Shown here in pieces: positions 49,785 through 63,472 of a stretch of DNA of 64,000 bases (positions are counted from its first letter, which is position 1; the number at the start of each line of letters is the position of its first letter). The translations under genes and the position numbers were made by a program. Under the pieces are notes generated by a model that saw nothing but the letters and a program-made list of their open reading frames with translations, had not been told where the DNA came from and did not search any database. Source of the stretch: Nitrospirota bacterium (GTDB lineage Bacteria > Nitrospirota > Thermodesulfovibrionia > Thermodesulfovibrionales > Dissulfurispiraceae); the NCBI GenBank assembly GCA_040758355.1, contig JBFLWF010000003.1:1-64000 (forward strand), given 5' to 3'.

Positions 49785-50870
49785 ATGGGCAATAGGCAAA
49801 AGACAAAAGACAAAAAAAATAATATTTTTGGAACAGGGATAAATGGTTATTCAGTTATTTCACATCGCCTATTGCCTATCGCCTATTGCCTTTTGTTTAT
49901 CTTATCTTCCTGCAGCCCTACTCAAGAAAAGCTCTACAAAGAGACCCGCACTTCTATGTACACTATTGTCTCGATTACGGTATCTTCAGACTCCGAAGAA
50001 AAGGCAAAAACAGCAATTGACAGGGCATTTAACGAACTGGACAGGCTTGCAAGGCTTTTAAATTTTTATTCTGAAGACAGCGAAGTATCCATGATTAATA
50101 GAAACGCTGGCGACAAACCTGTAAAGGTATCTCCAGAGACATTGGAGATAATAGATAAGGCGCTTTATGTATCGGAAAATACGGAAGGCGCATTTGATAT
50201 TACAGTCGGCCATGTAGTACGTCTGTGGGACTTCCAAAATAAGGTGCTGCCTGATGAAAAATTAATTAAAGAAAAACTTAAACTCGTGGGATACAGGAAT
50301 GTAATTGTGGATAAGGAAAAATCCAAGGTCTTTCTCAAAACAAAAGGAGTGCAGATAGACTTAGGCGGCATTATAAAAGGCTATGCAGCGGACAAGGCAG
50401 TAGAGGTGCTTAGAAAGAACAGGATAAAATCAGGCATTGTGGCTATTGCAGGAGATATAAAGGTGTTTGGGAAAAGACCGCCGACAGGATCGGATAACGG
50501 GCTGTGGAATGTTGGAATACAAAACCCGAGACAGAAAAGCGACAAGGATGAAATCATTGCTGCCATCGGTCTTTCGGATATGGCAATATCCACATCAGGT
50601 GATTACCAGAGATTTTTTATAAAGGATGGGAAAAGGTATCATCATCTTCTCAATCCAAGGACAGGCTATCCTGCTTATGGCTGCCAGAGCGTAACAATAA
50701 TAACAAAGGATGCTGCATTTACAGATGCCTTTGCCACAGGCATATTTATCCTCGGCCATCAAAAGGGAATGGATGTCTTAAAGAGGCTCGGCTTTGATGG
50801 AGTTATTGTGGATAAAGATGGTAAAATTCTTGTCACAGAAGGGATAAAAGATAAAATAAAATGGACCTAA
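49785..50870 (+). CDS. apbE: FAD:protein FMN transferase lipoprotein
   Basis: Lipobox LSSC, GAFDIT, DLGGI.KGYAAD, STSGDYQR, HHLLNPRTG. Confidence 0.93.
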   Translation: MGNRQKTKDKKNNIFGTGINGYSVISHRLLPIAYCLLFILSSCSPTQEKLYKETRTSMYTIVSITVSSDSEEKAKTAIDRAFNELDRLARLLNFYSEDSEVSMINRNAGDKPVKVSPETLEIIDKALYVSENTEGAFDITVGHVVRLWDFQNKVLPDEKLIKEKLKLVGYRNVIVDKEKSKVFLKTKGVQIDLGGIIKGYAADKAVEVLRKNRIKSGIVAIAGDIKVFGKRPPTGSDNGLWNVGIQNPRQKSDKDEIIAAIGLSDMAISTSGDYQRFFIKDGKRYHHLLNPRTGYPAYGCQSVTIITKDAAFTDAFATGIFILGHQKGMDVLKRLGFDGVIVDKDGKILVTEGIKDKIKWT

Positions 50871-50887
50871 GTTGAGCGATTTTATAT

Positions 50888-51048
50888 ATGTCAGGCACTG
50901 CTCAAAGACTTTAAAAAGTGTTGGTTTAAGTGTATATGAGAGATAATAAATGCATCATCAAGCAAGCATCCAATGTAGTAGATGACGGATGCAAGATAAA
51001 TGGTTTTTACAAGTGCGTGGTTTAAAGTCTTTTCGCAGCACCTGACAT
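50888..51048. ncRNA. Unidentified structured non-coding element, copy 1
   Basis: Interrupted terminal stem; homologous to 61973-62134 with compensatory changes. Transcription is not shown. Confidence 0.55.
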
Positions 51049-51094
51049 ATATTTTAGATTAGAATAGCCCAATTTAGGATGGAGTGTTGGAGTA

Positions 51095-51280
51095 ATGCAG
51101 ATAACCTGTCCTGTTTGTAAGAAAAAGACTACATGGGAAGAAAATCCGTGGAGGCCCTTTTGTTCAGAAAGATGCAAGCTGATCGATTTAGGGAAATGGG
51201 CATCTGAGGAGTATAAAGTTCCGGGAGAAGAAGCAGCGGAAAAAGAAGAGAAAGAGAAAAACAGTGCAAAAGACCAATAA
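51095..51280 (+). CDS. yacG: DNA gyrase inhibitor YacG
   Basis: CPVCKK ... [21 protein letters not shown]. Confidence 0.93.
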
Positions 51281-51310
51281 CGAGTAAGTTAATTATAAAA
51301 AGGGGGATTT

Positions 51311-51337
51311 CATAAGGGGGACAACGTCCCCCTTATG
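51311..51337. repeat. Perfect 12-bp hairpin between yacG and dapB
   Basis: CATAAGGGGGAC-AAC-GTCCCCCTTATG with no U-tract. Confidence 0.7.
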
Positions 51338-51356
51338 CCCCAAGAGGAGGATTTAC

Positions 51357-52160
51357 ATGACAAGGATTATTGTGACAGGCGCAACAGGAAGAATGGGGAG
51401 CAGGATTACTGCCCTTTCAAAGGATTACCATGATTTAAAACTTGCGGGAGCAACCGAGAGAAAGGGACATGACGCAATAGGCAGAGACATTGGCCCGATT
51501 GTAGGAATCGGTGAAACAAACGTAAAATTGACAGACAAGCTCGAAGATGTTATCGACACCTGTGATGTCATTATTGACTTCACATCCATAAATTCAACGC
51601 TGCAGCATGCAAAGTTAGCCGCTGAAAGAAAAAAGGCAATGGTAATCGGCACAACAGGATTCTCAAAAGAAGAGTTGGAACCGATAAAAGAATTTTCAAA
51701 AAATACCCCCATAGTTCTTGCCCCAAATATGAGCGTCGGCGTTAATCTCCTTCTTAAAGTTTTGCAGGATATCGCAAGGGTGCTCGGCGATGACTATGAC
51801 ATTGAAATTGTAGAGGCCCACCACAGATTGAAAAAGGATGCTCCGAGCGGCACAGCCATGAAAATGGCTCAGGTAATTGCAGATGCAGTCAACAGAGACC
51901 TCGACAATGTGGCTGTCTATGCAAGAAAGGGATTAATCGGCGAGAGAACGAAAAAGGAAATAGGCATTCAGACATTGAGGGGCGGGGATGTAGTGGGAGA
52001 ACATACCGTATTTTTCTATGGGCTCGGAGAGAGGATAGAGATTACTCACAAGGCATCAAGCAGGGACACCTTTGCAAGGGGCGCATTAAAGGCAGCTTTG
52101 TGGATTTCTAACAGGACTCATGGACTCTACGACATGCAGGATGTGCTGGGACTGAAATAG
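51357..52160 (+). CDS. dapB: 4-hydroxy-tetrahydrodipicolinate reductase
   Basis: GATGRMG, IGTTG, APNMSVGVN, EAHHRLKKDAPSGTA. Confidence 0.97.
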   Translation: MTRIIVTGATGRMGSRITALSKDYHDLKLAGATERKGHDAIGRDIGPIVGIGETNVKLTDKLEDVIDTCDVIIDFTSINSTLQHAKLAAERKKAMVIGTTGFSKEELEPIKEFSKNTPIVLAPNMSVGVNLLLKVLQDIARVLGDDYDIEIVEAHHRLKKDAPSGTAMKMAQVIADAVNRDLDNVAVYARKGLIGERTKKEIGIQTLRGGDVVGEHTVFFYGLGERIEITHKASSRDTFARGALKAALWISNRTHGLYDMQDVLGLK

Positions 52161-52165
52161 GGCGG

Positions 52166-52666
52166 TTACGCCCAGGGCGTTCCGCCGTCCACAATGCTGT
52201 GCTCTTCCCACATGAACCAGTTTCCTGTATCGGACATGAAGAAATAGGTATTGGCAAAGACTGCATAATGTTGTTCTTCTTCGTGCACAAGCCTTTCAAA
52301 GAGATTTCTCTCTTTCTCTGTAATAGCCTCCGATGCAGCCTTTTTATAAAACTCAACACCATGTTTTTCCATATCAGCAGCAATCTTGAATGCCTCCAGT
52401 TCATCCCTGGTAGCCTCAACCCTTTCCATCATCTCATGCTTCATCTCTTCAAAGATCGTCTTCATATTCTTCATTGGAGATGCCTCTCGAATCTTGAAGT
52501 CAAGTCCCTTCAATAATTCCGAGAGCATATCGAGATGCCTCTTTTCGTCTTCTGCTATGGATAAAAACATCTTTTTGCCGACTGCATGATTACATTTGTC
52601 CGATGCCTCTTTGTAGAATTTTATGGCATCTGTCTCCATCTTTATGGCTATTTCAACTGCATTCAT
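52166..52666 (-). CDS. Ferritin-like / rubrerythrin-family di-iron protein
   Basis: Duplicated AI.ME....FY ... E..H helices; ATG at 52666 with SD AGGAGG. Confidence 0.88.
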   Translation of the reverse strand: MNAVEIAIKMETDAIKFYKEASDKCNHAVGKKMFLSIAEDEKRHLDMLSELLKGLDFKIREASPMKNMKTIFEEMKHEMMERVEATRDELEAFKIAADMEKHGVEFYKKAASEAITEKERNLFERLVHEEEQHYAVFANTYFFMSDTGNWFMWEEHSIVDGGTPWA

Positions 52667-52677
52667 GATTTCCTCCT

Positions 52678-52836
52678 TTAAACCTTCTCGAACATATCCT
52701 TTCCTGCACCGCAAACAGGGCATACCCAGTCATCCGGAAGTTTTTCGAATGGCGTCCCTGCTGCAACACCTGAATCAGGGTCTCCGTATTCAGGGTCGTA
52801 TACATAACCGCATACGCTGCATTTCCACTTTTCCAT
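52678..52836 (-). CDS. Rubredoxin (52 aa; absent from the ORF track)
   Basis: Hand translation [59 protein letters not shown]. Confidence 0.97.
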
Positions 52837-52877
52837 AAGCCCTCCGATAATATTTTATTTAAATGCTATAAAAGAAC

Positions 52878-54170
52878 TCATTGCCTGTCAATTTTTTCCA
52901 TCTTTACCTTTGCTATTCGCTGGCCGACCATTTCTACAACCCTTAATTTTTTGTCTTCCATTTCTATAATATCGCCGGTCTGCGGTATCCTCTGGAGATA
53001 TGTAATAATAAAGCCTCCCAGTGTCTCATATTCCGGCGATTCCGGTATTTCTATATTATAATCCTCCATGAGATCGCTCACACTTATGGAGGCATCTATT
53101 ATTACAGTGCCGTCGCTGAGTTGAATGACAGGGCTCTCTATATCGTATTCATCCCTGATCTCGCCGACAATTTCCTCAAGGAGGTCTTCCAGGGTTACAA
53201 GGCCCGAGACAGCGCCGTATTCATCTATAACTATTGCCATATGTATCCTTTTTTTCTGCATCTCGCGCAGGAGAATGCTTATCTTCATTGTCTCGGGGAT
53301 GAATATGGGCGGCTTTATGATCTTATGAATATCCACGCTGCCTGTTTTTGAGAGTATATTATAGAAATCCTTTGCATACAAAATGCCCCTGATGTCATTT
53401 ATGTCTTTCCCTATAACAGGATAACGGGAGAACTTCTCCTCGGCTATGATGGACTTAACCTCATCAACCGGCATATTAATGCCTATAACTACCATCTGGG
53501 GGACAGGCCTCATAACCTCCTTTGCAAAGGTATCCGTAAACTCAAAGACGCTGTGTATAAGCTCCTTTTCTTCGGGTTCAAAAACACCCCTCTCCCCGCC
53601 CTCTTCTATGAGCATCTTCACTTCTTCCTCGGTGATATAACCCCTCTCTGTAAATGCCTTTTTGCCGAATGGCTTCAATAATATATTTGTGCTTGACGTA
53701 AGAATGCTTACAAATACAGTTGCCAGCTTAGAAATTCGGTTTATTGCAGGGGCAGTAAAGAGCCCCACACCTTCGGGATTTGATAGTGCTATGGATTTGG
53801 GAATTAGTTCCCCGAATATGAGGGAAAAGTAAGTGATGCATGCAACCACAATCCCTATGGCTATTGCCTCGCTGGATGCAGATATGAAGGTTATCGGGAC
53901 GGTCTTTAATACGGGCTTTATAACCTCTACAGCAGCAGCACCGCCGATAGCAGATGCAAGGGCGCCTGCCAGCGTAACTCCTATCTGAATCGTAGCAAGA
54001 AACCTGTCAGGGGATTCCCTTAGCTTATCCAAAATTTCGGCATTTTTTTTCCCCTCCTCCACAAGCTGTTTTACACGCGTCCTTCTGATCGTGACAACGG
54101 CTATTTCAGAGGCGGCAAAAAAGCCGTTTATAAGGATAAATATTGATATTAGTAATATCTCAAGCCACAT
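52878..54170 (-). CDS. HlyC/CorC family transporter (CNNM-CBS-CorC)
   Basis: NGFFAASEIA, FLATIQIG, GELIPKS, SRYPV, DEYG...GLVTLEDLLEEIVGEI.DEYD. Confidence 0.93.
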   Translation of the reverse strand: MWLEILLISIFILINGFFAASEIAVVTIRRTRVKQLVEEGKKNAEILDKLRESPDRFLATIQIGVTLAGALASAIGGAAAVEVIKPVLKTVPITFISASSEAIAIGIVVACITYFSLIFGELIPKSIALSNPEGVGLFTAPAINRISKLATVFVSILTSSTNILLKPFGKKAFTERGYITEEEVKMLIEEGGERGVFEPEEKELIHSVFEFTDTFAKEVMRPVPQMVVIGINMPVDEVKSIIAEEKFSRYPVIGKDINDIRGILYAKDFYNILSKTGSVDIHKIIKPPIFIPETMKISILLREMQKKRIHMAIVIDEYGAVSGLVTLEDLLEEIVGEIRDEYDIESPVIQLSDGTVIIDASISVSDLMEDYNIEIPESPEYETLGGFIITYLQRIPQTGDIIEMEDKKLRVVEMVGQRIAKVKMEKIDRQ

Positions 54171-54197
54171 AAATTAAGCGGGATATTTACAGGGTGC

Positions 54198-54229
54198 CGT
54201 CATAGCGGGGGATACTCCTCGCAATGACG
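54198..54229. repeat. Short REP-like palindrome
   Basis: CGTCAT-A-GCGGGGGA-TAC-TCCTCGC-A-ATGACG. Confidence 0.6.
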
Positions 54230-54289
54230 ATCTAAAGGGTTAGGTAAGTTCGGATCCATATATGGATAATTATATCATCTTTTTCTGTC

Positions 54290-54376
54290 TTTAGTTATTA
54301 GTAATTGAGTAATTAAGTTATTAAGTTATTGAGTTAGTTTTATTCACTCATTCACTTATTTACTTATTTACTTATT
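54290..54376. repeat. Degenerate 8-mer tandem repeats in inverted arrangement
   Basis: (AAGTTATT)n-like followed by (TACTTATT)n-like; near copy at 55629-55709. Confidence 0.85.
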
Positions 54377-55615
54377 TTACGGGTTAGCTGTAAGTATCAT
54401 CCTTACCATCTCAGGATAATGCGCAATAAGTCTCAACTCATCGTCGGTAAGGGGCTTTTGTGTATGCAGGTTTGCATACTGGGCAAGATCGAGTATCTTT
54501 CTTGCCTCGTTGTCATCGTGGAATTCTATGCCAAGCTTGCTGTAGACATGCCTGAAGCCCTTTATGCCGCCGTATTCGCCTGTTGTTATTACGCGTCCTG
54601 TTTCCACAAGCTCGTGCTCTCCCCTTCCTACATCCTCCGGGTCATAAAGCTCGTAGTTTCTCCTGTCCTTCAATGCACCGTCTGCATGTATTCCGGATTC
54701 GTGTGCAAAGGCATTGGCGCCAACACCTGGCTGATTGATCGGTATTGGAAGATTAAAGGCATACGATGCATACTTTGCTATTTTCCATGATTTTGTCAGA
54801 TCCACATGTTCGTCGAGAGGAACCTTGTCCTTAACGCCGTGTGAAAATTTAAGGGCAAGAATAGTGGAAACGAGGTCGCAGTTACCAGCCCTTTCTCCAT
54901 AGCCGTTTATTGTCGTGTTTATATAGGCATCAACGCCTGCCTCTATGGCCCCCTGAGCGCCTGCCACAGATACTGCCTCTGCCATGCCGAGGTCGTTGTG
55001 GCAATGCATCTCGACAGGGAATTTTGTTGCAAATGATAGTGCCTTTATCCTCTCATAAATCGTTATCGGATCGTCTGCTCCGAGGGTATCGCAATATCTG
55101 AATCTGTCAGCGCCGGCTTCCTTGCCTGCAAGTGCAAATTCTATAAGCCTGTCAAGCTCTGTCCTTGATGCATCCTCTGCATTAACGCCCACTGTTTCTG
55201 CACCGAGTTCTTTGGCAAGCTTTACGGATTCTTTAACTGTCTTCAAAATGTCCTTCCATGATTTTTTGCCCATGAACTTTGCACGCAGCATTATTTCCGA
55301 TGTGGACATGGAAATGTTGAGATGCCTCAATCCTGGACAGTTCTTAAAGGACAGCTTCACATCTTCAGGGACAGCCCTGCACCAGCCTTCGAGGTGTATC
55401 CTCTTCATTGCCCCTGCCTTGGCAAGCTCAATGTTGGCATTAATATAATTAAACTCGTGCTTAAGGGTCGGAAAACCCACCTCGCTCTGATAGATGCCCA
55501 TCTCATCGAGGTATATATTCAGCATTGTCTTTGAGAGCTTTGGCAGCAGAATCCTCGATGTCTGAACGCCGTCTCTATTGGTAACATCGATGAGATATAC
55601 CTTGTTGTTATTCAT
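54377..55615 (-). CDS. Homocitrate/isopropylmalate synthase family enzyme, probable Re-citrate synthase
   Basis: DVTNRDGVQ, NAEDASR, CDTLG, HCHNDLG, GERAGN, HESGIH; no LeuA regulatory domain. Confidence 0.8.
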   Translation of the reverse strand: MNNNKVYLIDVTNRDGVQTSRILLPKLSKTMLNIYLDEMGIYQSEVGFPTLKHEFNYINANIELAKAGAMKRIHLEGWCRAVPEDVKLSFKNCPGLRHLNISMSTSEIMLRAKFMGKKSWKDILKTVKESVKLAKELGAETVGVNAEDASRTELDRLIEFALAGKEAGADRFRYCDTLGADDPITIYERIKALSFATKFPVEMHCHNDLGMAEAVSVAGAQGAIEAGVDAYINTTINGYGERAGNCDLVSTILALKFSHGVKDKVPLDEHVDLTKSWKIAKYASYAFNLPIPINQPGVGANAFAHESGIHADGALKDRRNYELYDPEDVGRGEHELVETGRVITTGEYGGIKGFRHVYSKLGIEFHDDNEARKILDLAQYANLHTQKPLTDDELRLIAHYPEMVRMILTANP

Positions 55616-55628
55616 ACTCCTCCTCTAT

Positions 55629-55709
55629 TTTAGTTAGTAATTGAGTTATTAGTAATTAAGTTATTAAGTTATTGGGCTTTAAATTACTTATTTACTTATT
55701 TACTTATTT
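55629..55709. repeat. Degenerate 8-mer tandem repeats in inverted arrangement, overlapping the ilvN stop
   Basis: Same units as 54290-54376. Confidence 0.85.
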
Positions 55710-56192
55710 CTTCTTAGTGATTTCCCTTGCAATGGCCACCTTCCCTGTCCTTACAAATTCCTTTATGCCCATGGGCTTCATTAATTCGATGAATGCCTCG
55801 ATTTTCTTCTCATCACCCGTTATTTCTATGGTGTATGCATTGGGACTTGAATCAACAACCCTTCCCCTGAATATCTCGGCGGTCCTCAGTACCTCTGCCT
55901 TGTTCTCCTGTTTCGGGGCAACCTTGATAAGGACCATTTCCCTTTCCACATGGTCAAGCTCGGTGAGGTCTATGACCTTTATTACATCGATCAATTTGTT
56001 GAGCTGTTTAGTGATCTGCTCTATGACCCAGTCGTCTCCTGTGGTGACAATGGTCATAATCGAGATGTTGGGGTCTATTGTCTCGCCCACGGAAAGGCTC
56101 TCGATATTATATCCCCTGCCGCTGAAAAGGCCTGAAACCCTCGAAAGGACCCCGAATTTATTTTCCACAAGCACAGAAATGGTGTGTCTCAT
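55704..56192 (-). CDS. ilvN: Acetolactate synthase small subunit
   Basis: [42 protein letters not shown]. Confidence 0.96.
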
Positions 56193-56206
56193 TTCATGAC
56201 CTCCGC

Positions 56207-57958
56207 TTACTTTACTGCCTTAAGTTTCTTTTCAGCCTTTTTCTCTTTTTCTTCAAAGAGCATGGAATCCAGCGTTGCACCTGCCGGAACCATTGGATAT
56301 ACCTTCTCCTTCCAATCGCAGACAAAGTCCATGAACACAGGCTTCTTTATCTTGATTGCCTCCTTCAATACAGGTTCCACCTCGCTGGGTTTTGTCGCCC
56401 TTAAACCAACTGCTCCGTAAGCATGGGCAAGCTCAACAAAATCGGGAGTGGTCTCTGTTTCAAGGTGGACATGGGAATATCTCTCCTGGTAGAAAAGCTC
56501 CTGCCACTGTCTTACCATGCCCAGATACCTGTTATTTAAGATGGCAACTTTGACAGGCAGCTTGTAAATAACTGCTGTGGCAAGCTCCTGTATATTCATC
56601 TGTATGCTTCCGTCACCTGCTATGTCTATAACGAGTTTATCGGGATGCGCAAGCTGTGCGCCTATAGCTGCGGGGAAACCATATCCCATTGTCCCGAGTC
56701 CTCCCGAGGTCAAGAACCTTCTTGGTTTGTCGAACTTGTAAAACTGGGCTGCCCACATCTGGTTCTGTCCCACCTCCGTGGTTATGATGGCGTCTCCCTT
56801 TGTAATGTCATATATCTTTTCCACGACAAATTGAGGTTTAATCACATCAGGGTTATATGTGTAAGTTAATGGTCTCTCCTTTTTCCATTCTGCTATCTGC
56901 TTCAGCCACGCCTTTCTTACCTCTTTCCACTGCTCCTTTATATCTTCTTTCAGGATCTTGTTCATCACCGTGAGCACCTTCTTCACGTCTCCAACTATGG
57001 GAACGTCAACCCTCACATTCTTCCTTATGGAAGTAGGGTCTATATCTATGTGAACTATTTTTGCATGGGGAGCAAAGCCTTCTATCTTTCCGGTAACCCT
57101 GTCGTCAAACCTCATTCCAACGGCAATTAATAAATCGGATTCCTGAACGCTCTTATTTGCATAGTAAGTGCCGTGCATTCCGAGCATACCGAGGGATAAC
57201 TCATTGGTTCCCGGGAATGAGCCGAGTCCCATAAGGGTCATGGTGACAGGAATGCTCGCATGTTCTGCAAGCTCCTTCAGTTCTTTTGATGCACCGGAGA
57301 TTATGCAGCCGCCGCCTGCAATTATGACAGGCCTCTTTGCCCTTGCGATTTCATGGGCTGCCCTTTCTATCATCCACCTGTTGCCTTCATAGGTGGGATT
57401 ATAGCTCCTGATCTCTACATGATCAGGCCATACAAAGTCTGTCTTGCTGGATGTCACATCTTTAGGCAGATCAATCAATACCGGGCCTGGCCTTCCTGTT
57501 GCGGCTATATGGAATGCCTCTCTGATCTGCTCTGCCAGTTCATTAACATCCTTTGCAAGTATGTTATATTTTGTGCACGGCCTTGTTATGCCTACAATGT
57601 CCGCCTCCTGAAAGGCATCGTTTCCAATGAGCATGGTTGGAACCTGCCCTGTCAATACAACAAGCGGAATAGAATCCATGGATGCTGTTGCTATGCCTGT
57701 AACAGTGTTTGTAGCGCCCGGGCCTGATGTCACAAGGACAACGCCTGGTTTTCCTGTTGACCTTGCATAGCCGTCTGCTGCATGGACAGCTCCCTGCTCA
57801 TGCCTTGTAAGAATCAGTTGTAAATCCTTGTCGTCATAAAGGAGATCAAAGATATTCAGGATAACCCCGCCAGGGTATCCGAAGATATGTTTGACCCCTT
57901 CCCTCTTCAGGGATTCGATTATTATCTCAGCACCTGTCATTTTCCCAGACACTTTCAT
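56207..57958 (-). CDS. ilvB: Acetolactate synthase large subunit
   Basis: [50 protein letters not shown] favours ATG at 57958. Confidence 0.96.
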
Positions 57959-58111
57959 AATTTTGCTCCTCATAAAAAAATAAATTCCAAATCCTAATTT
58001 CGAAATTCGAATTTCGGATTTAGTGCTTACATTAGGTTATGAATTATTAGAATATCATAATTTTCATGAACTTTTCCAGAATATTAATGGAGCGATCTTT
58101 TTATTTTTTCT

Positions 58112-58453
58112 TCACTCTTTTTTTCTTTCACAGCATTTGACAACATTGGTATCGCTGATCTCTACAAGTCCTTTTTCCACTATACTAAGGACATCGGGCA
58201 GAACCTTATCGATCATATCTTCTGAATCCACAACCTCGATCTTTAATGGCAAACTCGTGGACAGTTCAAGTATCTTTGATTTATGGAATACGCCATCGCT
58301 GCCGTAGCCGGCTACTCCCCTGAATACACTGACGCCGGCTATTTTCTTTTTGTAAAAAATGTCCATCAGCACTTCATAAACAGGCTTCCCACCGAATTTG
58401 TCCGTCTCATCCACATAAATCGAAAGTTTCTTTGCAGTCCCCTGTTTTACCAT
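58112..58453 (-). CDS. DUF190 family PII-like protein
   Basis: IAGVSVFRGVAGYG, LSTSLPLKIEVVD; usual crcB neighbour. Confidence 0.9.
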   Translation of the reverse strand: MVKQGTAKKLSIYVDETDKFGGKPVYEVLMDIFYKKKIAGVSVFRGVAGYGSDGVFHKSKILELSTSLPLKIEVVDSEDMIDKVLPDVLSIVEKGLVEISDTNVVKCCERKKE

Positions 58454-58489
58454 AATTTATCTCCTATATCTTACAAAACCTGTCGCGAG

Positions 58490-58556
58490 TGTCATTCCTG
58501 CGAAAGCAGGAATCTATACATTTTTCTTCTGGATTCCCGCTTCCGCGGGAATGACA
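58490..58556. repeat. REP-like palindromic doublet (GTCATTCC...GGAATGAC type)
   Basis: TGTCATTCCTGCGAAAGCAGGAATC ... GATTCCCGCTTCCGCGGGAATGACA. Confidence 0.85.
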
Positions 58557-58564
58557 GAAAAAAA

Positions 58565-58948
58565 TTAAATACTCTTTGCAATCAATTCTCCAATTTTTAA
58601 TGCAATAAATCCCGCAACAACACTGAAAATTACATTCATTGATGCAAGCAGCCATTCCCCGTCTTTCAGAAGGCTTCCAGTCTCATACTCAAAAGTAGAA
58701 AATGTTGTATACGCCCCAAGAAATCCAACTATCAAAAATAACCTCCACTGAGGGTTGACCATCAATTTTTCGGTAAACAAAGACATAAGAAGTCCGATGA
58801 AAAAACTCCCGCTTACATTAATAAAAAACGTGCCTAATGGAAAGCTCCTTCCCCATTTCTGGCCAATCCAGAGGCCAATGGCGTATCTGGCGATTGCACC
58901 GATAAAACCTCCAATGCCTATTATCAGATAGTTTATCATTGATTGCAT
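58565..58948 (-). CDS. crcB: Fluoride channel Fluc/CrcB
   Basis: GGFIGAIARY, FPLGTFFINVSGSF, GFLGAYTTFSTF. Confidence 0.96.
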   Translation of the reverse strand: MQSMINYLIIGIGGFIGAIARYAIGLWIGQKWGRSFPLGTFFINVSGSFFIGLLMSLFTEKLMVNPQWRLFLIVGFLGAYTTFSTFEYETGSLLKDGEWLLASMNVIFSVVAGFIALKIGELIAKSI

Positions 58949-58949
58949 T

Positions 58950-58994
58950 AAAAAACTCCTACCCTCTTAAATTTTTTAACCGAGAGTAGGAGTT
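58950..58994 (-). terminator. Riboswitch expression-platform hairpin with U-tract
   Basis: Minus strand AACTCCTACTCTC ... GAGGGTAGGAGTT followed by TTTT. Confidence 0.85.
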
Positions 58995-59037
58995 ATCAGC
59001 TTCGGAACCGAAAGCGGTTATGGCGAACCCCATCGCC
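58986..59037 (-). promoter_or_regulatory. Fluoride riboswitch (crcB motif)
   Basis: Minus strand GGCGATGGGGTTCGCC-ATAACCGC...GCTGATAACTCCTAC, directly upstream of crcB. Confidence 0.95.
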
Positions 59038-59082
59038 TTTTAAATTATTTAAAAAATAACATAATCATAAACAGTAAGGCAA

Positions 59083-61773
59083 TCAAAATATTTCTCCAGC
59101 CAGCACTTTACGCAATATCTCGCTCAGCTCCTGAATCTTATACGGTTTGGCAACTACGCTCCTAAAGCCGTATTTTTTAAAGTCAGACATGATTGGATCA
59201 TCCGGATAGCCGCTGGATACAATTGCTTTAACATCGGGGTCGATCTCGAACAACCTCTTGATGGCTTCTCTGCCCCCCATACCTCCTCGCACGGTCAGAT
59301 CCATTACTACAGCACCAAAGGGCTGCCCCGATTCTCTGGCTTTTTTGTATAGCTCAATTGCCTCTTGGCCGTCTCCAGCAGACTCAACCTCATACCCCAT
59401 GCTGCGCAGCATGTCACAGGTAACTTCCCTTATCAATTCTTCGTCATCCATTACAAGAACCTTTCCACTGCCTGCAAATACTTCCCCTTTTGGCTCTTTT
59501 GCCTGAATCTCCTTTTCGGAAGCCGGGATATAGATATAAAAAGTTGTTCCAATTCCAACCCTTGATTCTGCAGTAATATATCCATCATGTTTCTTGATTA
59601 TGGAATAACAGACTGCAAGCCCCAGTCCTGTTCCCTTTCTGCTGTCCATCTTCTTTGTTGTAAAGTATGGGTCGAATATCCTTTTCATGTGTTCCTTCGG
59701 GATGCCAATGCCATGATCTTTTACAGATATTTTCACATATCTGCCTTCTTTTACAGGAAGACCGTCTTCAGAACCGACTGTAACATTTTCTGCCAGAACT
59801 TCAAGAGTCCCGCCCTCGGGCATGGCCCGCTGCGCATTAATACTCAGGTTGTGGATTACCTGCCTCAATTGCCCTTCATCGACTTCAACAGGCCAGAGGT
59901 CTTCCTGAATTGAGAAGTCGCATTTTACATTGGAACCGCTGAGCGAGAAAGTCACAGTATCCTCTATCAATCTTTTAATATATACAACCCCTTTTACAGG
60001 CTCTCCACCCTTTGCAAAGGTCAGTAATTGATAGGTAAGGTCCTTTGCCCTGAAGGATGCTTTTTCTGCTCTGGTCAAGAGTCCGAAATTCTTATCATCG
60101 GGGCTTGTCGACATCTTGGCGAGGGAAATATTTCCTAAAATGCCTGTAAGGAGATTATTGAAGTCATGGGCAATGCCGCCGGCAAGAAAGGCAATCGATT
60201 CCAGTTTTTTGACATTGATCAGCTCGTCTTCCATCTTTTTGCGAAGAGTGATATCTCTGAACGCAGTAATGGAACCGACAATCCTTCCATCCTCTATCAT
60301 TGGAGTAGAAATGTAAGCAACAGGGAACATGGTTCCATCCTTCCGGATGAACATATCGTCTTCGGTAATATATTTTTCCCCTGTCCTGATAACTTTAAGC
60401 ACAGGGCAGTCCCCGGCGGATAGCGGTGTTCCATTGGGTCTGCAATAGTGGATTATTTCGTGTACGTTTTTATCGAGCAATTCTGTTTCCTTCCATCCTA
60501 ACAGACGCTCTGCCTCCGGGTTCATGAAGATGAGACGGCCATGTTCGTTGACAACATAAACGCCTTCTCCCAGTGCCGATGTAATTTCCCGTAATTTTTT
60601 CTCGCTGCTTTGCAGTCGTTCATCCCGGCCACCACTCGTGCAGATAGCCGATCCTTCCGCCTTTCTCCGGTCAATTACGTTTGTCATTATATTTGCAACA
60701 GACTGGAGGAAGTTTATGTCATCTTCTGAGAATTTCCTCTTTTTCCTTGTATGGGCGCCCATTACCCCATAATGCCTGTCCTTGTCATGGATAATAACGC
60801 TTATACCGCTGGCCACGTCATGGTCTATGAGAAGCTGCGGCCCTTTAAATCGGGTCTCTGTGCTGAGGTCATCCACTATGACCGGTCCGGAAGACAGGAG
60901 CGTATACCCGGCCTGTGAGTCTGAATCTGCCGGAACAATTGCCTTTCCTACAAGCCCCTTTCTCCATCCAACGCCGGCTCTTAGGAGTAAGGCTTTTTCG
61001 TCTGGAAGGAGTTCCAGTATCTTGGCATATTCCACATTCAGGCCTTTGGCTACGAGGACGACAGTTTCGTCCATTAAGTCCTGCAGGTCTAAGCCTGTCA
61101 GCGCCTTCTCTCCAAGTTCAGCAACTATTGCCTGCTGTTGTACCCTGGCATTCAGCATTTCCTCAGCCTGCCTGCGTTTGATGGCCTCAGATAGTGCATT
61201 GGCAATAGAAGTTAAGAACGCCTCTTCCCTTTGATTGCGGGGGTGTCCTTCTTTTACATAAATATTTATTACTCCAAGCAATTTGTCGGAAAAAAGGATA
61301 GGGACAGAATAATGGCCGTGATTAACAATCCCTTCGTATCTGACTTCATGGCGGTCATCGAGGCAATCGGCAAATTGTATCTGTCTGGTAAATGCTGCAC
61401 GTCCGCAAAGACACCTGCCAATGGGAAGGCGTGAACATGTCTCCTTTAAGGATTCATTGAGGCCTCTCTGAGCCTTCATTATCAAGAAATCGGAATCATC
61501 TTCAGCGAGGAATATGCAGCCCTTTGATTCAAAGGCAAGCCATGGGATTGAAAGGATCAGTCGAAGCGCTCGCTTCAGGAATTCTTCAAGAGATGTCCCT
61601 TCCAGTGAAAGACTCAAAAGGAAATTTAGTGCCCTCTGGGTATCGTAGCTCTTCCGCATCTCCTCTTCTGCCCGCATGAACTGGGCCTCTGAGGTCTTCA
61701 ATCTGTCAATTCGTTGCCGAAGTCCTGATAGTTCGTCAATAAGTTGTTGTTTTGTTTTATGTTCGTCTTTCAT
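59083..61773 (-). CDS. Hybrid sensor histidine kinase (GAF-GAF-PAS-HisKA-HATPase-REC)
   Basis: AGGIAHDFNNLL, D.GIGI, FDPYFTTK, GTGLGL, VMDDE/MDLT receiver; start 61773 or 61785. Confidence 0.93.
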   Translation of the reverse strand: MKDEHKTKQQLIDELSGLRQRIDRLKTSEAQFMRAEEEMRKSYDTQRALNFLLSLSLEGTSLEEFLKRALRLILSIPWLAFESKGCIFLAEDDSDFLIMKAQRGLNESLKETCSRLPIGRCLCGRAAFTRQIQFADCLDDRHEVRYEGIVNHGHYSVPILFSDKLLGVINIYVKEGHPRNQREEAFLTSIANALSEAIKRRQAEEMLNARVQQQAIVAELGEKALTGLDLQDLMDETVVLVAKGLNVEYAKILELLPDEKALLLRAGVGWRKGLVGKAIVPADSDSQAGYTLLSSGPVIVDDLSTETRFKGPQLLIDHDVASGISVIIHDKDRHYGVMGAHTRKKRKFSEDDINFLQSVANIMTNVIDRRKAEGSAICTSGGRDERLQSSEKKLREITSALGEGVYVVNEHGRLIFMNPEAERLLGWKETELLDKNVHEIIHYCRPNGTPLSAGDCPVLKVIRTGEKYITEDDMFIRKDGTMFPVAYISTPMIEDGRIVGSITAFRDITLRKKMEDELINVKKLESIAFLAGGIAHDFNNLLTGILGNISLAKMSTSPDDKNFGLLTRAEKASFRAKDLTYQLLTFAKGGEPVKGVVYIKRLIEDTVTFSLSGSNVKCDFSIQEDLWPVEVDEGQLRQVIHNLSINAQRAMPEGGTLEVLAENVTVGSEDGLPVKEGRYVKISVKDHGIGIPKEHMKRIFDPYFTTKKMDSRKGTGLGLAVCYSIIKKHDGYITAESRVGIGTTFYIYIPASEKEIQAKEPKGEVFAGSGKVLVMDDEELIREVTCDMLRSMGYEVESAGDGQEAIELYKKARESGQPFGAVVMDLTVRGGMGGREAIKRLFEIDPDVKAIVSSGYPDDPIMSDFKKYGFRSVVAKPYKIQELSEILRKVLAGEIF

Positions 61774-61972
61774 TGCTTGTAGCAAGTTTTCACAAATGTG
61801 TACTAATCGCTATCAATCAAATACGGAAGACATTCGCTGCAAAAGGCAGGCCCCCCCGTTTCTTCATCCCCTATGGTTTTGTTCTTAACAAAAGGCTGGA
61901 ACTATTTTTTTGTTTTATTGTAAAACAATAAATACGGAAATGTAAATTCCATAATCCGTAACGTAATGATGA

Positions 61973-62134
61973 ATGTCGAGCATGTTTCAAAAGCCTTTAC
62001 AAAGTGTTGGTCTTTAATTTATGCCAGAGATAATCTACGCATCGCTCAATAAGAGAGCAATGTAGTAGATGACGGGTTCAAGACAATGCAGTTGAAAACT
62101 AAAAGTGTAAAGTCTTTTTCAGCACACTCGACAT
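61973..62134. ncRNA. Unidentified structured non-coding element, copy 2
   Basis: Homologous to 50888-51048, with identical CAATGTAGTAGATGACGG core and covarying stem. Confidence 0.55.
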
Positions 62135-62216
62135 CCATTTCGAGATGTTTGGCTACGGATTATGGTAAATCACAAGATTAGGGTGATAATAGCATGAAGT
62201 CCTGACGGCATTGACC

Positions 62217-62246
62217 GAAAAGAGGGGTGATCCTGAAGACCACCCC
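62217..62246 (-). terminator. Probable intrinsic terminator of the beta-propeller gene
   Basis: Minus strand GGGGTGGTC-TTCAG-GATCACCCC-TCTTTT. Confidence 0.7.
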
Positions 62247-62260
62247 ACTTCTGGAATAGC

Positions 62261-63472
62261 TTAGTGACTATGCATCTTATAAACCCCGGGTATTTCAAAA
62301 AGGTTTGTGTAAGTGTTTATGACCTGTGCTGCCTTATCACCCGTGGGGATTCCTTTGACGACCTCGCGTGTCTGCATGTCAATCACATACAGAGCCCCAT
62401 CAGAGGCATTGGTGGCATATGCCTTTTTGCTGTCAGCGCTGAAGACTATATGGCCGACATGATTGCCGTTTCCTACAGGAATGTCTTTTAGTTTCAGGCC
62501 GGTCTTTGCATCGACGATAGTGATGATATTTGAACCGTATGGGGTCAGCACAACGTAGTTGCCGTCCGGGGTCAGGTATGGATGTCCAACGCCGTTTGCT
62601 GCCTTGATTGTTCTGATGACTTTCTGCTGGGCAACGTCAATCACTGCTACTGTGCTGCCGCCAAACTTTGGGCCGGGACCGCGGTTGCAATAATAGAAAT
62701 ACTTGCCATCGAGGGTAAATATACCGTGATGGCCTTCTATAGCTTCACCCTCTGCCGTCGGTATTTCTATCTTCTTCACCTCTTTGAATGTCGTCATGTC
62801 GACTATTGAGACAGACGGCTTGATCTTTGCAGCGTCATTGCCTTCATAGACTATCCAGACCTGCTTGTTGTCAGGAGTAGGAATAAAGTAATGGGCCGGG
62901 CTGTCGCCATCGATCGTCGCAGCCACTTCGAGGGAAGGGATTTTGAGTACATAGGCCTTTTTGTCAGCATAGTTCTGGACAAAGGCGTATTTGCTATCCC
63001 AGGTGAAGGCAGAGTGCATCATGAGAGGACCTTTGTATTCCTTGTTCGCATGGTCAACGGCAAAGGTCTTCAGTTCCTTGTCGGTCTTAGCATCGAGCAG
63101 AACTGCCTTGACTTCGCCTGTATGATTGATAAGTACATATTTCCCGTCTGGTGTCACGAGCGGATGTTTGACGTTCTTGCCGGTCTTGATGTGTTTCAGG
63201 GTTTTATGGGTTATTGCGTCAATAACCGTTACAGAGTCGCCTCCGTTTTCGCCGACGTATATCTTCTTCAGATCAGGCGTAAGGCAGGCAAGCCAGCCCG
63301 TCGGACCGGTTTCACAATGGCCGATGACCATGTCTTTCTGCGGATCAACAAAAGAAAGTGTTTTTGATGCAGCATTAGGCACGAAGATCCACTTGGCGAC
63401 AGCAGCATATACAGCCGTGCTCAAGCCGACTACGACTAAAGCGATAAGACAATACCTTAAGAATCTCCTCAT
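62261..63472 (-). CDS. Secreted YVTN/YncE-like beta-propeller protein
   Basis: Signal peptide (AVYA) and repeated H...TPDG...V.VID blades. Confidence 0.85.
   Translation of the reverse strand: MRRFLRYCLIALVVVGLSTAVYAAVAKWIFVPNAASKTLSFVDPQKDMVIGHCETGPTGWLACLTPDLKKIYVGENGGDSVTVIDAITHKTLKHIKTGKNVKHPLVTPDGKYVLINHTGEVKAVLLDAKTDKELKTFAVDHANKEYKGPLMMHSAFTWDSKYAFVQNYADKKAYVLKIPSLEVAATIDGDSPAHYFIPTPDNKQVWIVYEGNDAAKIKPSVSIVDMTTFKEVKKIEIPTAEGEAIEGHHGIFTLDGKYFYYCNRGPGPKFGGSTVAVIDVAQQKVIRTIKAANGVGHPYLTPDGNYVVLTPYGSNIITIVDAKTGLKLKDIPVGNGNHVGHIVFSADSKKAYATNASDGALYVIDMQTREVVKGIPTGDKAAQVINTYTNLFEIPGVYKMHSH

Follow-up and report, generated by a model that had tools for sequence, protein, structure and literature searches.

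A probable IS1380-family MITE with a conserved internal hairpin module in a Nitrospirota genome

The subject of this analysis is a short repeat present twice within the window, i.e. the 64,000-nt stretch at the start of contig JBFLWF010000003.1 from a Nitrospirota bacterium (assembly GCA_040758355.1), which resembles several described systems. MICs are mosaic non-autonomous elements with cargo, and attC sites and REPINs form long, imperfect hairpins that fold better on one strand and display a variable terminal loop. Insertion sequences (ISs) of the IS1380 family are reported to create target duplications of 4–5 bp (PMC12116815). For the ERIC repeat, orientation is described as being of consequence (PMC2229807), and transcripts of Correia elements are reported to be cut by RNase III (PMC10969869). 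The initial annotation of the window recognised two diverged copies of a 161/162-nt structured element, interpreted as a probable minus-strand RNA or else the RNA/ssDNA form of a non-autonomous element. It is the second of these options that is borne out herein, as the repeat is very probably a non-autonomous IS1380-family transposon, or MITE (miniature inverted-repeat transposable element), of about 211–217 bp.

The original description is accurate as to the position of the two copies, their shared motifs, the identical 18-mer, and both stems with their ca/ca and tc/tc interruptions, but the proposed 161/162-nt limits are too narrow, and the unit they enclose is an inner module (Table 1). Alignment of the elements continues ~22–30 bp past those limits to 16-bp terminal inverted repeats (TIRs), which start with CC and end with GG. 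From one end to the other, the layout is a TIR, 2–4 nt, an inner stem arm, a loop of ~105 nt, a second inner stem arm, 11–13 nt and a TIR, giving a typical length of 211–214 bp that is non-coding, with no open frame found across the loops. Autonomous IS1380 elements such as L224 and L226 have left ends that agree with the left TIR of copy 1 at 16/16 positions (L numbers denote compared loci, G000 the genome containing the window and other G numbers compared genomes, amongst which G003 is complete and G004 belongs to the same genus).

Target duplications were assessed in the 49 of 72 copies that possess recognisable ends, the 23 copies with decayed ends being left out. The 5-bp flanks match perfectly in seven of the 49 (0.6 in shuffled pairs; k=5, p=0.0002) and at no fewer than four of five positions in 19 (4.6 in shuffled pairs); matching is also raised at k=6, with k=2–4 and k=7–9 being null. 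The duplications are AT-rich and 5 bp long, or probably 6 bp for elements with type B ends. Copy 2, which has such ends, is flanked by TAAATT and TAAATC, agreeing at 5/6 positions and constituting a probable 6-bp duplication. The ATGGA duplication of copy 1 is, taken alone, weaker than the genome-wide test because its flank is a GGAGT-rich simple repeat. With regard to empty sites, that of copy 1 between apbE and yacG is unoccupied in 5/5 relatives, and G000 lacks at least 150 bp in 23 of 49 non-self orthologous comparisons where the relative has a copy; for copy 2, no orthologous locus was found in five relatives. The features by which a MITE is recognised are therefore all displayed, namely a short non-coding sequence with TIRs, target duplication, and many dispersed copies with empty sites. 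The initial annotation had itself named IS-type ends and clear target duplications as findings that would tell against an RNA family, and since IS1380 ends, duplications and empty sites are what was found, a stand-alone, low-copy RNA family is not supported.

Rather than two copies, G000 harbours dozens. An iterated profile search returned 57 full copies, to which are added 13 short forms, where an interior of ~110 nt is swapped for 2–5 nt, and 15 type II copies, which have the same arms around a different loop. The total of 85 elements makes up 0.61 % of the genome; these counts derive from profile and covariance-model searches, a structure-only scan (61 elements) being insensitive. Two further loop types exist, III in G004 and IV in G000, with weak similarity between types (best pairwise p 0.01–0.06). 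By blast, the element occurs in eight of 24 relatives from the same family and in 0/16 others. By the covariance-model search of related genomes suggested at the outset, 25 out of 150 genomes from the order, spanning six families, carry the module, which lies inside several IS1380 end types; in a 150-genome sample of the phylum there were six genomes with matches, all within the order and none outside it. No match was found in viral contigs (searched with a single exact 26-nt pattern), plasmids or phages. Depending on the genome, the same gap between genes holds a long or a short form, a copy in the opposite orientation or an unrelated family of hairpins. The highest identity between any two type I copies in G000 is 97.4 %, and no IS1380 transposase was found in the assembly; bursts of amplification are therefore old, not recent.

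Several other observations concern these repeats. At least two unrelated families of long-hairpin intergenic repeats (G000:C1:126361, C7:48265, C8:13969, C12:9514, C3:118946 and C59:6435) fill gene gaps that the MITE occupies in relatives. In G004, a 27-nt REP-like palindrome is inserted in many MITE copies as well as elsewhere (e.g. L185, L178, L022 and L120). Five weak DnaA-family (AAA+) matches of the same score in G003 (C1:261542, 709140, 1035511, 1046188 and 2099809) probably mark a multi-copy IS21-type element through its helper ATPase, and one interrupts a MITE copy. Finally, a typical type I copy (L032) resides on a contig whose record is titled Bacillus sp., and which is probably mis-binned.

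Autonomous partners are apparent for two of the end types. G004 encodes an IS1380 transposase (NF033539, above cut-off), and the upstream end of this IS matches the end of copy 1 at 15/16 positions (type A ends); a transposase is present in G003 also, with other ends. In a survey of metagenomes, 80 loci for the NF033539 protein were obtained and 53 examined, 32 of which are 1.72–1.79-kb elements with type-A-like repeats, several identical to those of the MITE. Type B ends, as in copy 2, bound a decayed IS1380 in G009 (L130), and for types C and III no autonomous partner was found. The pairing of end type with loop type varies between copies. Judged as an IS1380 derivative, the element thus shares TIRs with autonomous members for types A and B, whilst neither a resident cognate transposase nor a parent-derived interior was found in G000. 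Autonomous IS1380 elements of several clades (left ends L224–L278, and L118, L128, L130 and L306) do possess a left-end hairpin of their own, which encloses a TATAAT box, ends at the ribosome-binding site and often folds better antisense to the transposase gene (minus strand in 22/26, over few positions). Descent of the inner stem from this hairpin was considered and set aside, as the motif similarity is not significant (median p about 0.16). Nor is the interior borne out as a deletion product of a parent IS, the loops matching 0/148 IS loci.

Within the TIRs lies the feature that first suggested an RNA, an inner stem of ~30 bp. Compared with dinucleotide shuffles, copy 1 has z-scores of −7.0 for the minus and −2.5 for the plus strand, and copy 2 of −5.2 and −4.3, respectively. 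In an alignment of 65 diverse copies, 93.9 % of 1493 cells are paired and two-sided changes occur at 19/23 pairs, such that the compensatory changes proposed from two copies extend to many. Stem covariation is 0.428; shuffling gives 0.160 (0/500) and slid controls do not exceed 0.111, with the structure taken by RNAalifold from the same alignment, which favours the result. Arm-to-arm DNA copying can also produce such a signal. Across 133 distinct arm pairs, core-to-core spacing is 117–123 nt in 124, and at the two CA/CA positions 132 and 133 of the pairs are either Watson–Crick or A·C, the latter being equivalent to G·U on the minus strand. The supposed retention of both interruptions holds for TC/TC, which 15 of 23 arm lineages preserve and which on the minus strand becomes a tandem G·A, but CA/CA is not universal, as about a third of the arm pairs are Watson–Crick there. 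Fixed stem mismatches over the 23 lineages, which include distant families, are A·C rather than G·T by 42 to 12, or by 26 to 12 without the CA/CA positions (p=0.03, overstated given that the lineages are related and not independent). The minus-strand reading of the fold is upheld accordingly, the non-canonical positions being G·U and tandem G·A on that strand.

Transcription gives a different picture. Where copies in G000 lie between co-directional genes, mRNA corresponds to the plus strand in 36 versus six type I copies, 11 versus zero short forms and seven versus three type II copies. Copies are found shortly after stop codons within operons, gyrB–gyrA and murG–murC–murB amongst them (names from translations). 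The better-folding minus strand is hence usually not the mRNA strand, and operon mRNA carries the weaker-folding plus strand, contrary to the proposal that the RNA is probably made from the minus strand. In G003, 19 copies are sense and one antisense, and for genes on the lagging strand the excess remains at seven to one; the orientation bias therefore follows transcription. A replication-strand cause was considered and rejected on this evidence, the leading strand of G003 carrying 20/29 copies (p=0.06). G000 is uninformative in this respect because two skew proxies gave opposite answers. Copy 2 belongs to the six type I copies in antisense orientation, and a terminator-like hairpin (Table 1) may protect it from read-through.

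The observations are likely to be best explained by an IS1380-family MITE with the following proposed history of mobilisation, end exchange and helix function. Judging by its ends, the element would have been copied around the chromosome by an IS1380 DDE transposase supplied in trans. Recombination between copies, within their shared arms, may have switched the inner module amongst end types (A, B, C and others), so that it tracked whichever IS1380 was present. The fold-back would be retained in amplifying lineages and renewed by arm-to-arm copying, whilst tandem TC/TC and C·A positions would render it one-sided, placing a near-perfect helix on the untranscribed strand and leaving mRNA with an interrupted helix only. 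Copies would then persist in operons in one orientation, the opposite being purged by the host as a cleavage or polarity hazard. Orientation effects in ERIC and cleavage of Correia transcripts by RNase III offer precedents by analogy for such a filter. The part given here to the helix, comprising retention in amplifying lineages and the orientation filter, is the likeliest of those considered, yet is put forward tentatively.

A number of findings weigh against this account. No IS1380 transposase was found in G000, which is 99 % complete, or in G001 or G002. The inner module occurs in none of 148 IS loci, save for one MITE beside an IS, and as the likeness to the IS left-end hairpin is not significant, the module has no apparent source. 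Many element junctions are eroded, and the murC–murB site does not agree with a 5-bp duplication. In subfamily A, the two TIRs are 22 % and 19 % non-consensus, compared with 9 % for the stem, 3 % for the core and 11 % for the loop. A pure transposon model accounts for this greater decay of the TIRs only via conversion between copies; the pattern fits either such conversion or selection at the level of the host. Amongst changes private to single copies (77 copies), the 61 that are one-sided in the stem show no strand bias (17 A·C versus 14 G·T), and private mutation rates are similar in stem (0.022) and loop (0.028). The harm ascribed to the antisense orientation is, furthermore, itself inferred.

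The decay pattern also bears on the alternative that survives best, albeit as an unlikely one, in which the inner module functions as a structured RNA of the minus (antisense) strand, transported between IS1380 ends in the manner of a passenger cassette and either aiding transposition or domesticated as a protein-binding RNA. In favour of this view, the module outlasts its TIRs, and there are the tandem G·A pairs, the excess of A·C over G·T and the constant core spacing given above. An additional inner helix, of GCGAT/ATCGC type, reappears in distant families, and the murC–murB copies of G019 and G000 differ at 13/216 aligned positions, with coding flanks that are 70–86 % identical. It is similarly doubtful that the ~165-nt module is itself the unit conserved, as an antisense structured RNA, a rod in which tandem G·A and G·U pairs close a loop of fixed length, spread through the order by swapping IS1380 ends. 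The same low expectation attaches to such a module having a part in transposition or host function, which would make it an RNA-cargo MITE or else, in bacteria, a passenger that resembles a short interspersed nuclear element (SINE) and travels on a DDE transposon. Set against these ideas are the lack of a consensus promoter in copy 1 to drive the transcript, the lack of any consensus structure for the type I loop on the plus strand, and the helix-breaking changes that resident copies gain with no preference for wobble pairs. Insertion sites are lineage-specific, loopless short forms spread too, and relatedness of the lineages inflates the significance of the pairing statistics. A discrete antisense RNA may be made from the element; should one exist, the DDE transposon would have an RNA passenger of an unusual kind.

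The private changes speak in part for another reading, that the helix is a neutral by-product. A quasi-palindrome could repair itself by template switching or fold-back mismatch repair, leaving behind those mismatches that are poorly repaired, with no selection on structure. Eight private two-sided changes were found, all Watson–Crick, versus 0.84 expected; transition-type single changes are rarer in the stem (31/61) than in the loop (129/187), and single copies exist with both internal loops of the stem fully repaired. What makes this reading distinctly improbable is the constancy of the TC/TC position across families whose loops can barely be aligned, together with 93 % conservation of the core and an orientation bias that requires some strand-specific effect. 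The private changes point to drift in resident copies along with arm-to-arm copying, or to selection in sublineages that were unsampled.

A fold biased to the bottom strand, with terminal loops that can be either long or short at one and the same site, might suggest a single-strand DNA hairpin element, mobilised by an HUH (RAYT) enzyme if REPIN-like or by an integron integrase if attC-like, and G000 does encode two Y1_Tnp-family genes and an integron-like integrase. This possibility is largely refuted and now very remote, in view of the 5-bp duplications and IS1380 ends, the location of copies amongst housekeeping genes and the dependence of orientation on transcription and not replichore. One Y1_Tnp gene lies 900 bp from a copy, but the second has none nearby, and a RAYT link was rejected; the integron link was rejected likewise, copies lying between housekeeping genes and outside the cassette array. 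For the record, the two Y1_Tnp (RAYT-like) genes are at G000:C21:13013-13318 (broken) and C10:9216-9881, and short elements with the inverted repeat found beside the former occur at C7:47768 and C8:26940. The integrase (437 aa) is followed by a cassette array with attC-like repeats (C3:122491-129324; L109), with integrase fragments at C6 and C10. More generally, the check for a recombinase, transposase, nuclease or reverse transcriptase (RT) gene next to the element revealed no mobilising gene beside copies, the neighbours being mostly housekeeping genes by translation.

Length and a long closing stem around a large open centre recall a paralogue of 6S RNA, or else a guide/scaffold RNA whose variable segments would do the targeting, yet either is scarcely credible, as the element has no Rfam match, the 6S gene of G000 (C5:2907-3096) lies elsewhere and gives no blast match to it, no targeting signal was seen, and neither RT (PF00078) nor IS110 (PF02371) was found in G000. 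The suggestion of a guide or scaffold role fails in detail on the loop segments, whose matches to their own flanks do not surpass those to other flanks (7.1 versus 7.3 nt) and which have no excess of genomic targets (162 versus 124–177 in shuffles). The initial failure to place the element in a known family agrees with the Rfam searches: copy 1 gave nothing at E-values up to 10, six distant homologue loci gave only chance-level matches, and the whole window contained only a fluoride riboswitch at gathering level. This riboswitch (RF01734, 58.6 bits; window 58980-59046, minus strand) is upstream of a 127-aa membrane gene resembling crcB/fluC by translation. A second, single-copy 6S-like rod (34 bits, below the gathering score) was noted at G000:C9:93834-94025 on the plus strand (L305), between a strong sigma-70-like promoter and an apparent 16S rRNA start.

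The features of both copies and their surroundings are collected in Table 1. Tandem repeats of 6–8 nt are found within and beside genes at window positions 49850-49900 and in many intergenic flanks.

Table 1. Parts of the two window copies and the genes around them (window coordinates)
Feature	Position	Strand	Remarks
apbE-family gene	49785..50870	+	Pfam PF02424; copy 1 inserted in last codons, stop now supplied by the element (alignment to empty sites)
Copy 1, left target-site duplication	50861..50865	+	ATGGA; same 5-mer at 51079-51083
Copy 1, full MITE	50866..51078	+	213 bp; type I loop; TIR type A; no counterpart at orthologous site in 5/5 relatives
Copy 1, left TIR	50866..50881	+	Type A; contains TAA now terminating apbE
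Copy 1, inner stem left arm	50885..50915	+	Variable 11-bp outer helix, CA (50896-97), CTGC, TC (50902-03), conserved core AAAGACTTTAAA
Copy 1, loop	50916..51020	+	Type I; 105 nt, conserved length; 18-mer at 50971-50988
Copy 1, inner stem right arm	51021..51051	+	Core, TC (51033-34), GCAG, CA (51039-40), outer helix
Copy 1, right TIR	51063..51078	+	Type A; consensus match 14/16
Copy 1, right target-site duplication	51079..51083	+	ATGGA
yacG-family gene	51095..51280	+	Pfam PF03884; directly 3′ of copy 1
dapB	51357-52160		Pfam PF01113/PF05173; next after yacG-family gene
Copy 2, full MITE	61949..62165	+	217 bp; type I loop; TIR type B
Copy 2, inner module (stem-loop-stem)	61969..62138	+	18-mer at 62058-62075
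Terminator-like hairpin	62224..62246	-	Between beta-propeller gene and copy 2; consensus scan only
Beta-propeller gene	62261-63472	-	Near copy 2

No description of the element was found in the literature, subscription papers mostly and ISfinder entirely being outside the search. The main text of one MITE survey (PMC11602168) is without Nitrospir, Thermodesulfo or IS1380, and its supplement may yet list such an element. The repeat supplies a clear IS1380-family MITE, none having turned up in the literature searched, and presents a single inner hairpin module that persists across an order whilst its transposon ends are exchanged. For RNA discovery there is a caution, in that a transposon family can yield strong, strand-specific covariation. 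A 213-bp construct would allow two questions to be put to experiment, namely whether an internal fold-back assists a DDE transposase when the element to be moved is very short, and whether a MITE can conceal itself within operons by means of one-sided mismatches.

Comparison with known systems places the element closest to IS1380 insertion sequences (ISEcp1/ISEc9; NCBIfam NF033539, Pfam PF13701). Both display CC…GG terminal repeats, 5-bp duplications and an internal hairpin, located at the left end of the IS, and the ends of the element are identical to those of a clade of ~1.73-kb IS1380 elements; it differs in having no transposase gene and in harbouring an internal module of ~165 nt. ERIC/IRU, Correia/NEMIS and RUP are described as similar intergenic repeats of 100–200 bp, with TIRs and target-site duplications, long stem–loops in transcripts and co-transcription with neighbours (PMC2229807, PMC10969869). 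Those MITEs of the ERIC/Correia type that are tabulated there mostly have TA termini, whereas the present element has 5–6-bp duplications and IS1380-type ends, and its TIRs enclose a strong helix that shows covariation across an order and for which the untranscribed strand gives the better fold. Compared with attC sites and REPINs, it possesses target duplications and IS ends, has no cassette context and is oriented according to transcription. Like TIMEs, it places transposon ends without a transposase around interchangeable inner modules (PMC4133298). In contrast to TIMEs and MICs, its cargo consists of a hairpin module that is non-coding and fixed in length, and it is the ends that change and the module that stays.

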